Below, piece after piece: positions 1 to 8,556 of a DNA stretch of 29,307 nt; positions within the stretch are counted from its first letter, which is position 1, and each line of letters begins with the position of its first letter. This DNA comes from a virus, in IMG/VR virus record IMGVR_UViG_3300031914_000001, positions 1 to 29,307 of that record; one strand, 5' to 3'. Position numbers and translations under genes: made by a program. The notes beneath the pieces are model-generated. The model had not been told where the DNA came from, searched no databases, and saw only the letters and a list, made by a program, of their open reading frames with translations.

Positions 1-55
1 GCAGAGCGATTCCTTCGTAAGGAATAGGTCGAGGGTTCAAATCCCTCCTCCGGCT
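1..55 (+). tRNA. tRNA-Thr(CGT), 5' end cut by the window edge
   Basis: End of the D arm (GCAGAGCG), anticodon arm ATTCC-TTCGTAA-GGAAT (anticodon CGT at 16-18), variable AGGTC, T arm GAGGG-TTCAAAT-CCCTC, acceptor 3' strand CTCCGGC, discriminator T55; no encoded CCA. Confidence 0.92.
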
Positions 56-1019: not shown

Positions 1020-1195
1020 ACATGGCTCAGTTCGATCGCGGTATCCCACCTCCGTTGTACTCCCCGTAGATCACAGCAACAGCAGTAGTGTACGCAAACA
1101 TCCGTTAGCCGGAAGGCCGTCGTTTTGGCCGACGTTTGGCCGACGTCGGCGGTCTCGGAGAACGCCTCGATGGCGTTTTTTCCGGCGGAAAACAC
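975..1195. repeat. Perfect 19-bp inverted repeat pair (975-993 and 1177-1195) enclosing a tandem 11-bp repeat; candidate origin or operator
   Basis: GTGTTTTCCGCCGGAAAAA and TTTTTCCGGCGGAAAACAC; each contains the palindrome TTTTCCG-N-CGGAAAA; TTGGCCGACGT occurs twice at 1125-1146. Confidence 0.85.
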
Positions 1196-1202
1196 GACCT
1201 CG

Positions 1203-3323
1203 ATGTCAACCACCCACGACCGACGAAAGGAGAACGAGACGCTAACCGAGACGCTGGTCCGCTTCCTTCGGGAGCGGTACCGTGACGCGATCGGCACGCT
1301 CGCGCAGCACTACCCGAACGAACAGCGGTCACTCGTCGTCGACTACGACGAGCTGTACGAGTTCGACCGCGAGATCGCCGAGGATATCCTCGCGAAGCCG
1401 GACGAGATGCAGGAGTACCTGGAAGAGGCGCTGCGGAACTTCGACCTCCCGGCGGACGTGTCTCTCGATCGGGCTCACGTGCGCGTGGCGAACCTGCCGG
1501 ACGAGTACACGCACTACCCCGGTCACTTCAGTCCGACCAAGGTCCACAACGACCAGCCGTACATCGGCGTCGAGGGCGAGATCGTCGCGGGGAGCGACGT
1601 CCACCCGAAGGTCACCGAGACCGCGTTCGAGTGCAAGCGCTGCGGGACGATGACGTACATCCCGCAGACGGATCGCGGCTACCAGGAGCCCCACGAGTGT
1701 CAGGGCTGTGAGCGGCAGGGGCCGTTCCGCGTCAACTTCGACCAGTCCGAGTTCATCGACGCCCAGAAGATCCGCCTCTCGGAGCCGCCGGAGGTCGCCG
1801 GTGGCGAGGGCCAGTCGATCGACATCTTCGTCGAGGATGACCTCGCCGGCGAGGTGACCACGGGCGACCGCGTCACCATCACCGGGCGGCTTCACCTCGA
1901 ACAGCGGACGAAGGGCAACGAGAAGAAGTCGACGTTCGAGCCGTACCTGAACGGCCACGCCATCGAGGTTCAGGAGTCGGACCAGACGACGGTCGAGGTC
2001 TCGCACGACGAGCGGAAGGAGATCGATGGGATCGTCGACGGTGAGCTGGGCGAGCCGCTCGTCGTCGCTGCCGAGTCGATCGCGCCGGGCGTGTTCGGCG
2101 AACAGTACGACCACATGAAGCGGGCGATCGTCCTGGCCGTGGTCGGCGGCGATTGGGTCGAGGGGAAGGACGGCAGCGTCGAGCGCGGCTCCATCAGCAT
2201 GCTCCTCGTGGGCGACCCGTCGACGGGGAAGTCCGCGCTGATCAACCAGGCCGAGTCCAACGCCCCGCGGTCCGTCGGTGTCTCGGGGAAGGGCGCTCGC
2301 GAAGCCGGCATCACTGCCTCGGCCGTTCGCGACGACTTCTCCGACGGCGAGTGGACGCTCAAAGCGGGCGCGTTCGTGAAGGCGAACGGCGGGATCGTCC
2401 GGATCGATGAGCTCGACGACATGCCGCCGGACGTGCGGGCGGCGATGCTGGAGCCGATGGCCAACGGGAAGATCAACGTCTCGAAGGCCGGGATCAACGC
2501 GACGCTGCAGACGCGCGTCGGCGTCATCGCTGCGGCGAACCCGAAGTACGGCCGGTTCGACCCCTACGAGCCCGTCGTCGAGCAGGTCGAGCTCGGGTCG
2601 ACGCTCATCTCGCGATTCGACCTCGGGTTCACCGTCACCGAGACCGACGAGGTCAACACCGTCAAACAAGTCGCTCGGGACATCGTCGGCCGTCGCGAAC
2701 ACAAGAAGCGCCTCGACGTCGCCCCGGAGACGATCGAGCCCGGTGAGACCGACAAGTACGATCCGCCGGTCCGGAGTGAGCTCCTCCGAAAGTGGCTGGC
2801 GCTCGCCGGCGACCAGCCGTCGCCCGTCATCGCGAGCGAAGAGCTCGAACAGCGGATCGCCGACGAGTTCTCCGACTTCAAGACGAAGCACATGGGAGAG
2901 GACGCGCCCGTCCCCGCGACGTGGCGCGACCTGGAGGCGCAGCTGCGGCTCGCCGAGGCGGCTGCGAAGCTGGAGTTCTCGGAGACGATCGAAGAGCGGC
3001 ACTTCAAAACGGCACTCTCGCTGACGATGCGCTCGATGCGGGACTTCGGGATGAACGAGGACGGTGAGTTCGACGCCGACGTCCGCGAGTCCGGCACGTC
3101 GAAGACGCAGCGTGACCGCATCACAGTGCTCGAGGACATCGTTGAACAGCAGTGCTCTGAGGGGAACAGCAACGGTGCCGCTGTCGAAGACGTTCTTGAC
3201 GAGGCCGAGGCCGAGGGCGTCGACCGGAAGCGCGCGGAGAAGGCGCTCCGGAAGATCAAGGAAGAGATCGGGTCGCTGTACGAGCCGATGGATGGCACGC
3301 TCAAGTGGCTCGGGAGGGCGTAA
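1203..3323 (+). CDS. mcm: MCM replicative helicase
   Basis: Zn finger CKRC...CQGC, Walker A GDPSTGKS, Walker B IDELDDM, presensor hairpin VSKAGINATL, AAANP, Arg finger SRFDL, sensor 2 TWRDLEAQLRLAEA, C-terminal wHTH-like tail. Start set at ATG 1203. Confidence 0.97.
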   Translation: MSTTHDRRKENETLTETLVRFLRERYRDAIGTLAQHYPNEQRSLVVDYDELYEFDREIAEDILAKPDEMQEYLEEALRNFDLPADVSLDRAHVRVANLPDEYTHYPGHFSPTKVHNDQPYIGVEGEIVAGSDVHPKVTETAFECKRCGTMTYIPQTDRGYQEPHECQGCERQGPFRVNFDQSEFIDAQKIRLSEPPEVAGGEGQSIDIFVEDDLAGEVTTGDRVTITGRLHLEQRTKGNEKKSTFEPYLNGHAIEVQESDQTTVEVSHDERKEIDGIVDGELGEPLVVAAESIAPGVFGEQYDHMKRAIVLAVVGGDWVEGKDGSVERGSISMLLVGDPSTGKSALINQAESNAPRSVGVSGKGAREAGITASAVRDDFSDGEWTLKAGAFVKANGGIVRIDELDDMPPDVRAAMLEPMANGKINVSKAGINATLQTRVGVIAAANPKYGRFDPYEPVVEQVELGSTLISRFDLGFTVTETDEVNTVKQVARDIVGRREHKKRLDVAPETIEPGETDKYDPPVRSELLRKWLALAGDQPSPVIASEELEQRIADEFSDFKTKHMGEDAPVPATWRDLEAQLRLAEAAAKLEFSETIEERHFKTALSLTMRSMRDFGMNEDGEFDADVRESGTSKTQRDRITVLEDIVEQQCSEGNSNGAAVEDVLDEAEAEGVDRKRAEKALRKIKEEIGSLYEPMDGTLKWLGRA

Positions 3324-5345: not shown

Positions 5346-5521
5346 GCCTCTCGCAGTACGGGCGCGTCGAGTTCCCGTTCGGCGACCGGCGCCTCGTCGG
5401 CGATGCAGTCGACTTCGAGCCCGCCGGCGACGTCTCCGGGCCCGACGGCCTCCTGGTCGTCGACGTCGACGGGCTCACGTACCGCGTCGAGGAGTCGAAG
5501 GTCGAGCGGTTGGATCGATAG
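5342..5521 (+). CDS. 59-aa hypothetical protein whose last codons overlap the tRNA-Phe 5' end
   Basis: MSLSQYGRVEFPFGDRRLVGDAVDF...KVERLDR; stop TAG at 5519-5521 lies inside the tRNA. Confidence 0.6.
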   Translation: MSLSQYGRVEFPFGDRRLVGDAVDFEPAGDVSGPDGLLVVDVDGLTYRVEESKVERLDR

Positions 5522-5582
5522 CGCAACGGGAGCGCACCGCCCTGAAGAGGCGGAGGTCCCGGTTCGAGTCCGGGTCGATCCA
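5512..5582 (+). tRNA. Virus-encoded tRNA-Phe(GAA)
   Basis: Complete cloverleaf: acceptor GGATCGA/TCGATCC plus A73, D arm GCGC-AACGGGA-GCGC, anticodon arm CCGCC-CTGAAGA-GGCGG, variable AGGT, T arm CCCGG-TTCGAGT-CCGGG. Confidence 0.93.
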
Positions 5583-5585
5583 TGT

Positions 5586-5863
5586 CCCGTGGGGCGTGCC
5601 TTCTCCGGAAGGCCAGGTCACCCTGCGGGGATGTTGAGCCGAATGAGCGGCCGGCAGCCATAACCGGCGTTCGGTACCTCAACGTGTTGTCTACGTCGCG
5701 TATCATGCTTCTTCGGACCGTCTCGACACGACGTTCCAAACCCAACCAAGACCGGCCGCCTTGCGACGCCTGTGGCCAGGTGACGGACGCCCCTATTGGG
5801 AGTGGCGAAACCAAAGCCCTCTACGGAGCTCCCCCGTCCCGGGTTCGATCCCCGGCGTCGCCG
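5586..5863 (+). ncRNA. Putative structured non-coding RNA(s) after tRNA-Phe, ending in a tRNA-like module
   Basis: Nested helices found by eye (5586-5629, 5631-5685), three cUNCGg tetraloops, and a T arm CCGGG-TTCGATC-CCCGG with acceptor-like pairing GCGACG/CGTCGC. Confidence 0.5.
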
Positions 5864-5905
5864 TTCGAGTCGTATCGCACGCTAATCCCTCCGTTTCCTC
5901 TCCAG

Positions 5906-6013
5906 ATGCCCAGCCCGACCCATCGTTCGACGACCGGCCAGTGCCCGGAGTGTGGCGCCAGCCACGCCTCGGCGAGACCGTGTGACTGCCAGCCCTACGC
6001 TGATGTCACATGA
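5906..6013 (+). CDS. 35-aa CPxCG-type Zn-finger microprotein
   Basis: MPSPTHRSTTGQCPECGASHASARPCDCQPYADVT; ATGA-coupled to the next gene. Confidence 0.6.
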   Translation: MPSPTHRSTTGQCPECGASHASARPCDCQPYADVT

Positions 6014-6321
6014 TGTCCGTCCAACGCCCTCGGCCGTGGTACTGCCGGGACGACCTCGTCGACGAGTACAAGAGCACGCTCAGAGAGGATGGTGAGTCAC
6101 TGCCGATGCTGAGGGCGCTGAAGATCCTCCGCGCGATCATCGTCAACCTCGGCGTGATCGCCATCGGCCTCTACGCGATCTCCCGCGGCGGGGATCCAAC
6201 GTTCCTGGGTGGCTTCGGACTCACAATCCTCGGCGCCTACAACGGCGTCGAGCTGCTCGACTACGCCGCGCTTCTCCAAGCGTACAGCGAGGTCCAGACA
6301 GACGCTGACGGCGAGGACTGA
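6010..6321 (+). CDS. Small membrane protein (2 predicted TM segments)
   Basis: Hydrophobic stretches AIIVNLGVIAIGLYAI and FLGGFGLTILGAYNGV. Confidence 0.75.
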   Translation: MMSVQRPRPWYCRDDLVDEYKSTLREDGESLPMLRALKILRAIIVNLGVIAIGLYAISRGGDPTFLGGFGLTILGAYNGVELLDYAALLQAYSEVQTDADGED

Positions 6322-7755: not shown

Positions 7756-8556
7756 ATGGCGCACAGAGAAAACTTCCACGAAAACGCCCACCCCGAAGCC
7801 ACCGCGATCACCGGTGAGCGGGACTACGGCGAGTGGGGACAGTGCATCGTCGATCCGGCGAGCTCGACCGGCGAGCGCTGTACCCAGCCGGCGAAGGGGA
7901 GTCACGGGAAGTGCCACTCCCACGGTGGCTCTGAAGGCTCTGGTGCGCCGGATGGGAACACCAACGCCGAGGGCAACAGCGGCGGGGCAGCTCCCGAGGA
8001 GAACGACAACGCCGTGGGCAACGACGGCGGGGCAGCTCCCGACGACAACACGAACGCGGTCACTCACGCGTTGTACGTCGAGAGCAACCGCTTCTACTCG
8101 GAGGTCATCGACGACGCGCTCCGTGAGCTCTGCGACGACATCTACCGGAGCTATGTCGAGAAGTTCCGCGAGATCAACGCCGAGCCGATCGTCGGCGAGA
8201 AGGCGCGGCTCTCGGAGATCGCGGTCAACCACATCAAGATCATCCACGCGGACAACTGGGCGGTCGACCGTCCCGACGATCTCCACTCCGGGAACGCGCT
8301 CGTCGATCGGGAGACGCGGGTGAAGGCCTCCCAGAGTGAGTTCCGAGAGGAAGTCCGCTACAAGGAGTCGGTCGTCGTGAAGACGCAACAGCGCCTCCGG
8401 AAGGAGGATCGGAAGTGGCTGAAGGAGATGGGACTGCTCGGCGCCGACGAACTCGACGTCAACGTCGACGGGCAGGTCGACCACGACCACAGCCACGGTC
8501 TCGACGAGGACACTCGCGAGATGATCGACGACCTCGAGGAGGACCTGAAGGCATGA
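7756..8556 (+). CDS. terS: Terminase small subunit (probable)
   Basis: RC...KCHSHGG and repeated GAPxxNxNA...HALY motifs as in HGGxSTG-type TerS proteins; first gene of the packaging module. Confidence 0.7.
   Translation: MAHRENFHENAHPEATAITGERDYGEWGQCIVDPASSTGERCTQPAKGSHGKCHSHGGSEGSGAPDGNTNAEGNSGGAAPEENDNAVGNDGGAAPDDNTNAVTHALYVESNRFYSEVIDDALRELCDDIYRSYVEKFREINAEPIVGEKARLSEIAVNHIKIIHADNWAVDRPDDLHSGNALVDRETRVKASQSEFREEVRYKESVVVKTQQRLRKEDRKWLKEMGLLGADELDVNVDGQVDHDHSHGLDEDTREMIDDLEEDLKA
7942..8060 (+). repeat. Three GAPxxNxNA coding repeats (45-bp period) in TerS
   Basis: GGGCAACxxCGGCGGGGCAGCTCCCGA at 7971 and 8016, plus a degenerate copy at 7942. Confidence 0.85.

Follow-up and report, generated by a model that had tools for sequence, protein, structure and literature searches.

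The window studied here is the whole 29,307-nt stretch of viral DNA held in IMG/VR record IMGVR_UViG_3300031914_000001 (positions 1 to 29,307); the host of the provirus is a haloarchaeon with about 65% G+C, whose genome (3 contigs) amounts to 3.69 Mb. Where the replication genes (MCM helicase, 1125-3323) give way to the packaging genes (small terminase, 7756-8556), the window carries a cassette that begins with a tRNA-Phe(GAA) gene (5511..5583, + strand; found by ARAGORN and scored at 69.6 bits by the Rfam tRNA model RF00005), continues with a conserved stretch of about 180 nt (5584-5762) and ends with a tRNA-like element (5763..5862, + strand), which extends from G1 to the presumed discriminator C5862 and lies 180 nt downstream of the viral tRNA-Phe. 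Small regulators are encoded between the MCM helicase and the tRNA-Phe, and small open reading frames (ORFs) between the tRNA-like element and the small terminase. On the comparative evidence given below, we conclude that positions 5763-5862 (+ strand) are a conserved structured RNA.

Homologues of the element were collected from 12 species of the same genus and from 15 IMG/VR viral contigs, and two more distant copies from other genera were added by means of a covariance model (R1), which scores the window element at 120.7 bits and its homologues at 105-131 bits. Using an alignment of 23 sequences (A2), we compared a model of six helices (P1 to P5 and the T stem, 32 pairs) with controls in which the partners were slid by 1-3 columns and with 500 shuffles. 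Standard pairs occupied 96.7% of the pair cells, against 39-45% in the slid controls. Compensatory changes on both sides were found at 16 of the 32 pairs, with at least two such pairs in every helix, and none of the 500 shuffles reached the covariation score. The homologues being related viruses, these compensatory changes stand for fewer independent events than the number of cells. G.U pairs were seen solely in the + strand reading, which indicates that the RNA is made from the + strand.

The acceptor-like stem P1 (GCGACG/CGTCGC, 6 bp, 5763-68/5856-61) is paired in 98.6% of the cells and three of its six pairs change on both sides; a seventh pair has no support, as it would be U.C here and C.C in Halorubrum virus BJ1. 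The T arm (CCGGG-TTCGATC-CCCGG, 5839..5855) has a 5-bp stem (5839-43/5851-55; 98.3% of the cells paired, 3/5 pairs covarying) and the loop UUCGAUC. The junction is four-way and tRNA-like: the D-like hairpin P2 directly adjoins P1 and is separated from P3 by one U. P3 (GACGG/CCGTC, 5782-86/5834-38; three of five pairs covarying, 99.1% of the cells paired) occupies the place of the anticodon stem, with 0 nt between it and the T stem in 20 of the 23 aligned sequences. The original prediction, made from the letters of the window alone, had placed the T arm, the acceptor-like stem and the P3 helix correctly, and all three show compensatory changes in the 23 homologues. It was partly right about the D-like hairpin, which exists, covaries (two of four pairs, 100% of the cells paired) and has GG in its loop; the hairpin had been drawn as CCT-GTGGCC-AGG, and its actual stem is 4 bp, CCTG/CAGG (5769-72/5777-80), around the loop TGGC. 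The consensus of this loop is T-G-[A/G]-N, and its GG would stand in for G18 G19 of a tRNA. The two parts of a tRNA elbow, the T loop UUCGA and the D-like loop UGG, are conserved, and the GG-bearing hairpin could form the elbow.

Beyond P3, the inner core that had been proposed earlier (GGGAG/CTCCC with the hairpins TGG-CGAAA-CCA and CTC-TACG-GAG) failed the comparison, being paired in 59% of the cells, below all 500 shuffles and with no gain over slid partners. In our model, P3 leads through a 2 x 4 internal loop to P4 (GCCCC/GGAGC, 5789-93/5825-29; 3/5 pairs covarying, 99.1% of the cells paired), and P4 leads through an internal loop, UAUUG/AC, to P5 (GGAG-[T]-GGC/GCC-CTCT, 7 bp with a bulged U5803, 5799-5806/5816-22), which closes the terminal loop GAAACCAAA (5807-5815). 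The motifs U-A-U-K-G and A-C of the internal loop between P4 and P5 are invariant among the homologues, and the terminal loop is nearly so (consensus G-A-R-A-Y-C-M-A-A); a distant copy (L268) has a differing apical loop, GACAA. P5 itself occurs in three sequence types (GGAG-U-GGC, CUCAGGC and GGCGGGC), in each of which the pairing is kept. According to this covariation model, the anticodon arm and the variable loop of a tRNA are replaced by a single long rod of three helices. The position preceding the element (-1) is U in every aligned copy, positions +1/+2 are G/C in 22 of the 23, and no CCA is encoded at the 3' end. As to protein coding, an open frame runs through 5582-6013, and this candidate was rejected: the part within the cassette has an isoelectric point of 10.1 as opposed to an acidic proteome, and the lengths of the homologous elements (98-103 nt) differ by steps of 1-2 nt.

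The tRNA-like element is coupled to the RNA upstream of it by a long-range helix, S4, formed by S4a (GCGGCCGG, 5647..5654, + strand) and S4b (CCGGCCGC, 5752..5759, + strand). S4b covers positions -11 to -4 of the element and is followed by a nearly invariant CUU (-3 to -1); the upstream structured RNA would end at U5762, 3 nt past S4. All eight pairs of S4 are kept in 24 of 24 homologues, through five fully Watson-Crick compensatory variants (GCGGCCGG/CCGGCCGC, GCGGUCGG/CCGACCGC, GCGACCGG/CCGGUCGC, GUGGCCGG/CCGGCCAC and GCGGACGG/CCGUCCGC) and G.U intermediates. As S4 couples the leader of the element to the upstream RNA, we regard as the unit the tRNA (or a mini tRNA-like element, see below), the structured RNA of about 180 nt and the tRNA-like element. 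A second structured part, the 5' domain of the upstream RNA (5584..5632, + strand), is a long hairpin with the helices 5584-5588/5628-5632 and 5590-5594/5621-5625 and the inner hairpin 5598-5603/5608-5613; its closing helix begins two or three bases past the tRNA discriminator. The centroid fold of 5583-5862 contains this hairpin, closing helix included, and at the same time S4, P3, P5 and the acceptor stem of the element. When this fold, drawn by hand from the homologues, was laid over the first ~50 nt (alignment A4), 83.7% of the cells were paired as compared with 35-53% for slid partners. The BJ1-type sequences have a tandem GA/AG within this hairpin, and RNAalifold returned a poor consensus for the domain (-7.4 kcal/mol). 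We therefore regard the fold of the 5' domain as moderately supported, below the level reached by the tRNA-like element, and the fold of the upstream RNA as only partly established. The upstream RNA also has the conserved motifs GGCCAGGUCA and ACGAGCGGCCGGCA and a variable middle part; an all-against-all scan for pairing columns was too permissive for use. In the predicted folds, both ends of the ~180-nt RNA are held in helices, as is the case with stable RNAs. Two further pairings were checked by eye, that of the conserved trailer with the upstream RNA and a pseudoknot of GGCCAGGUCA with the P5 loop, and neither gave consistent covariation.

Of the 25 loci examined, 15 have a tRNA-Phe in the 5' slot of the cassette and one (L011) has a tRNA-Val(GAC). 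In several relatives, it holds instead a mini tRNA-like element of about 58 nt, comprising an acceptor stem, a short hairpin and a T arm (L013:1300-1357; L015:1301-1358; L028:1851-1908; L006:1826-1871, - strand; L268:1267-1322). The L006 mini element scores 34.5 bits with the Rfam mascRNA-menRNA model RF01684 (E = 0.001), under the gathering score of 42.5 bits. Since the slot accepts tRNA-Phe, tRNA-Val or a mini element, what is kept is the shape of a tRNA and not a decoding identity. The spacing from bracket to bracket is ~160-190 nt in most homologues, and longer in L041. The upstream ORF terminates at a TAG (5519-5521) that falls within the tRNA-Phe, at its positions 8-10; in relatives, the stop falls within the mini tRNA-like element. 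With the stop so placed, a read-through transcript cleaved by RNase P would lose the stop codon of that mRNA.

On the 3' side, the element is followed by a conserved trailer or leader of 43 nt (..UUCGAG....CCCUCCGUUUCCNCUCCAG, 5863..5905, + strand), which reaches the ATG at 5906. It carries a CCUCC motif, which is not a Shine-Dalgarno sequence, and it precedes two unrelated first genes, a 35-aa Zn-ribbon ORF in the window and the exonuclease gp43 in BJ1. The trailer is conserved in most homologues and missing in four (L013, L015, L029 and L040). Three divergent copies (L029, L040 and L269) have a T-rich tract (ATTTATCATTTTAC or TTTT) directly 3' of the acceptor stem, which would fit an archaeal terminator closing an RNA-only transcription unit. 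A scan for promoters and terminators, run with bacterial consensus sequences on this archaeal DNA, found nothing relevant.

The nearest relatives of the stretch around the element are Halorubrum virus BJ1 (73% identity) and the provirus-derived virus Humcor1, both of the Graaviviridae. In the records of both viruses, the homologous DNA is a gap without annotation located 3' of the tRNA-Phe gene, and the BJ1 paper lists just one tRNA, the tRNA-Phe (PMC2194725). Searches with R1 detected the element in 12 of the 74 species of the genus, at one copy per genome, with two clear matches in other genera of the same family and one marginal match (E = 0.003) within that family, and found none in 88 genomes from other families of the class; a loose DNA pattern run over genome and metagenome contigs was too permissive and gave chance matches only. 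The element is thus virus-borne and single-copy, being carried by BJ1, Humcor1 and the 15 IMG/VR contigs, and it travels with BJ1-type haloarchaeal viruses and proviruses. One IMG/VR copy (L033:374-483, - strand) is an apparent recombinant inside the element, with the 5' part and the upstream RNA of the window type and the Humcor1 type from P4 on, which results in a G.G mismatch in P3. A contig assembled from a hypersaline-lake metatranscriptome (run X11) has the change C5838G and a differing downstream sequence, both as in L033. In two runs labelled as RNA-Seq of one organism (X5 and X7), positions 5350-6250 of the window lie inside a single contig of 38,293 nt with a word depth of 163-194; such a contig is compatible with RNA, with provirus DNA or with an excised form, and cannot tell these apart. 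At the left edge, positions 1-55 of the window are the 3' portion of a tRNA gene truncated by the window edge (39.9 bits), which lies just ahead of the provirus genes and is probably the integration target. A similar provirus, Hlac-Pro1, was published as a defective provirus of 29 kb (PMC6011602).

Could the element nevertheless be a tRNA, or the remains of one? The original prediction, which saw in it a tRNA-like domain and not a tRNA that decodes, was upheld on this point by the Rfam and ARAGORN searches and by the absence of an anticodon loop, a variable region and a bulge-helix-bulge (BHB) intron. With RF00005 (gathering score 29 bits), a search of 501 nt returned nothing within 5763-5862, even when the limit was relaxed to E <= 10, and Rfam 15, searched both at the gathering scores and at E <= 10, offered no family for the element. 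Its score with RF01684 was 15.7 bits (E = 2.2), below the gathering score, and among the relatives the Rfam searches gave weak, sub-threshold matches to tRNA-Sec (24-26 bits). The ARAGORN check that had been suggested for an intron-containing tRNA detected nothing in the window, at default or intron-allowed settings, and for tmRNA neither ARAGORN (option -m) nor Rfam gave a match in the window. In favour of a decoding tRNA that is unconventional and carries a non-canonical intron, ARAGORN called the L010 copy a tRNA-Leu(GAG) with a 24-nt intron at 32/33 when introns were allowed and, at an 80% threshold, the window copy a tRNA-Pro(GGG) with a 19-nt intron; moreover, P4 resembles a 5-bp anticodon stem. 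However, just 1 of 14 homologues was called at the normal threshold with the intron option, and both models were rejected because their D stems contradict the covarying P2 and P3. Instead of a 7-nt anticodon loop with U33, P4 is followed by an internal loop and the 7-bp stem P5. The would-be anticodon shifts with the P5 type (GAG, UCU or GUC), two of the three types having C as nucleotide 33, and P3 abuts the T arm, where a tRNA would have a variable region of 4 nt or more. The splicing endonuclease of haloarchaea requires a strict BHB, that is, two 3-nt bulges, 4 bp apart, at the exon-intron junctions. When the 23 sequences were scanned by script, no BHB turned up that was either conserved or in agreement with the covarying helices; the window's best candidate has three of the four central pairs and would leave an 11-nt loop. 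We consider a decoding tRNA very improbable, and the comparative data largely refute the reading as an intron-containing tRNA. The same data bear on a further reading, with no function at the RNA level, as a pseudo-tRNA in decay or a tRNA fragment of the attP type; a precedent is the tRNA-like attP described for halovirus HF2 (PMC8707807). BJ1-type viruses integrate beside tRNA genes, and the truncated tRNA at window positions 1-55 points the same way. An attP, however, would be split by integration, whereas the element lies inside the integrated provirus, flanked by viral genes (MCM helicase upstream, terminase downstream), so that this reading fails. There is also no similar host tRNA from which the element could have come, the short BLAST matches being due to chance and lying outside tRNA genes. 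As for decay, the covariation check proposed at the outset, when run on the 23 homologues, found compensatory changes in all six helices, which is the opposite of what a pseudo-tRNA would show. We thus find the pseudo-tRNA or attP reading barely credible and, at the level of sequence comparison, refuted by covariation and by position.

We propose instead, as the somewhat more probable interpretation, that the element is a cutting signal, or punctuation mark, for the RNase P and tRNase Z of the host. From the observed fold, conservation, upstream coupling and bracket layout, we infer the cleavages and the stability of their products as follows. The tRNase Z of the host would act twice, behind the first tRNA and again after about C5862, and the host RNase P would cleave at the U5762/G5763 junction. 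The products would be the tRNA, a structured RNA of ~180 nt with defined ends and a tRNA mimic of ~100 nt, plus, where the trailer is present, a downstream mRNA beginning with the conserved leader. The features that are read by processing enzymes are kept in the element, namely a 6-bp acceptor on a 5-bp T stem, the UUCGA loop, the GG-bearing D-like hairpin, G+1 and U-1. Substrates of RNase P typically present G+1, U-1 and a free linker ahead of a normal acceptor/T minihelix. Work on Haloferax has shown that RNase P and tRNase Z release, in vivo, an RNA placed between two tRNA-like t-elements, and that the 5' end of 5S rRNA is defined there by a natural t-element (PMC4326828, PMC4946936). The earlier suggestion of an RNase P/Z signal for the upstream RNA thereby gains indirect support, from S4, from the bracket and from the Haloferax precedent, the cuts themselves being predicted. 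A contig from a hypersaline-lake metatranscriptome starts at 5584, two bases past the tRNA-Phe discriminator, and is continuous through 5870; its start is a weak hint of tRNase Z processing after tRNA-Phe, given that contig ends need not be RNA ends.

Several observations weigh against this processing model. The RNA runs in which this stretch occurs (X1-X8 and X11) are assembled contigs, which cannot show where RNAs start or end, and the metatranscriptome contig is unbroken over the predicted RNase P site 5762/5763, which means that uncut precursor or contaminating DNA exists. The stack of acceptor and T stems is 11 bp instead of the 12 bp of tRNAs, and the leader helix, which ends 3 nt before the cut site, could hinder RNase P. 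The folding energy of the window element alone is not separable from that of shuffles (z = -1.48), so that the case is comparative and not thermodynamic. Finally, a 17-bp covarying arm with invariant loops is not needed for a signal, the mini element having no such arm, and processing is therefore not the whole function; the conserved long arm points to a further role of the excised tRNA-like RNA or of the precursor, and a binding partner is to be expected. A tentative alternative that starts from this arm, and that overlaps with the processing model, is that the tRNA-like RNA is itself the functional product and that processing is just the way of making it. It might be a stable small RNA that recruits or sequesters a tRNA-binding factor, with the CCA-adding enzyme, a modification enzyme, an elongation factor or a tRNA-cleaving defence nuclease as conceivable candidates, while the long arm might bind a viral or host partner. 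The arm P3-P4-P5 covaries and its UAUKG/AC and GARAYCMAA motifs are nearly invariant though unneeded by processing enzymes, the elbow parts are conserved, and the site at the boundary of MCM helicase and small terminase would suit such a role. On the other hand, sequence searches within the 29-kb window found no antisense target of the loops or of the cassette beyond chance, and the apical loop is different in the distant copy L268. We think it unlikely that the element instead remains uncut and forms, as a tRNA-like domain, the 3' end of an RNA of ~280 nt (5584-5862), similarly to the 3' tRNA-like structures of plant viruses; its role would then be 3'-end protection or the acceptance of CCA, with S4 stacking near the acceptor stem. 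Such an arrangement is consistent with the covariation of S4 and its end 3 nt before G1, with the continuity of the metatranscriptome contig from 5584 through 5870, and with the T-rich tract directly 3' of the element in L029, L040 and L269, as at the end of a transcription unit. Yet G+1, U-1 and the free CUU linker before the acceptor/T minihelix give the element the look of an RNase P substrate, the continuity of the contig needs little uncut precursor, and most homologues continue into the conserved leader and an ORF, with no terminator.

Cutting by the tRNA-maturation enzymes of the host, which remains our preferred interpretation, has its closest counterpart in the t-elements of Haloferax volcanii (Hölzle et al. 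2008 and 2012, as cited in PMC4326828 and PMC4946936). These are likewise non-decoding, tRNA-like structures of a haloarchaeon, in which an acceptor-like stem stacked on a T arm adjoins an RNA whose end it defines, and the viral element resembles them by layout in having such a stem and arm, no decoding capacity and an adjoining RNA. An engineered Haloferax cassette (Marchfelder laboratory), in which two tRNA-like elements bracket one RNA, has the same layout as the cassette described here. Unlike the t-elements, the element studied here is viral and has a long covarying arm of three helices, a D-like hairpin and a leader paired to the RNA that would be released.

Other known systems are similar in part. 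In MALAT1 (mascRNA) and NEAT1 (MEN-beta), the 5' cut by RNase P makes the 3' end of the upstream RNA and RNase Z releases a small tRNA-like RNA. This family (RF01684) likewise has a tRNA-like structure located 3' of a long structured RNA, and the L006 mini element reaches the sub-threshold score given above with its model. By contrast with the viral element, mascRNA is vertebrate and nuclear; the viral element scores low with the model and has a much longer arm, and the two are alike in layout without being homologous. Viral non-coding RNAs that are either co-transcribed with tRNAs or tRNA-shaped, and are matured by the host RNase P, comprise the species 1 and 2 RNAs of the T4 tRNA cluster, the C4 RNA of P1 and P7 and the CI RNA of P4, some of which control immunity. 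They differ in being bacterial and in having no homology in sequence or structure with the cassette, for which no antisense target was found in the window. The tRNA-like domains of tmRNA and YrlA share with the element an acceptor stem and a T arm, together with a long helix that replaces the anticodon arm. However, the tmRNA domain is built from both ends of a long RNA, whereas the viral element is one continuous stretch of 100 nt with a D-like hairpin and went undetected in the ARAGORN tmRNA search; tmRNA is not known from archaea. With archaeal tRNAs themselves, canonical or intron-bearing, the element shares the sequence of the T loop, a four-way junction, the G1-C72 pair, the presence of GG in the D-like loop and the absence of an encoded CCA. 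It differs from them by its 6-bp acceptor and by its lack of an 8/9 linker, of a variable region, of a 7-nt loop with U33, of a BHB and of a match to RF00005.

We found no mention of the element or of the upstream RNA in the literature searched; both are absent from Rfam, and neither is annotated in BJ1 or Humcor1. The tRNA-like processing elements are a known kind, among which the viral element stands apart by its extra arm and its coupled second RNA. Non-coding RNAs of archaeal viruses are almost unknown, and the cassette provides a covariation-backed family together with a second, physically coupled RNA. If the processing model is true, the cassette would be a natural counterpart of the engineered t-element cassette of Haloferax and an archaeal-virus parallel to MALAT1/mascRNA, and it would yield defined RNA products in culturable systems (BJ1, Humcor1 and a Halorubrum lysogen). 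More speculatively, the cassette might be a virus-specific RNA system, in which the tRNA-maturation enzymes of the host yield the ~180-nt RNA and the ~100-nt extended-arm mimic from a single transcript, and in which one or both of these RNAs would act on the host or on the programme of the virus itself. Possible roles are to serve as a decoy or sponge towards a factor that binds or cleaves tRNAs, or as a regulator at the early/late (lysogeny/lytic) boundary, where the cassette is located. The function of the long arm could bear on the way in which these viruses handle the tRNA biology of their hosts, or on the timing of their late genes.

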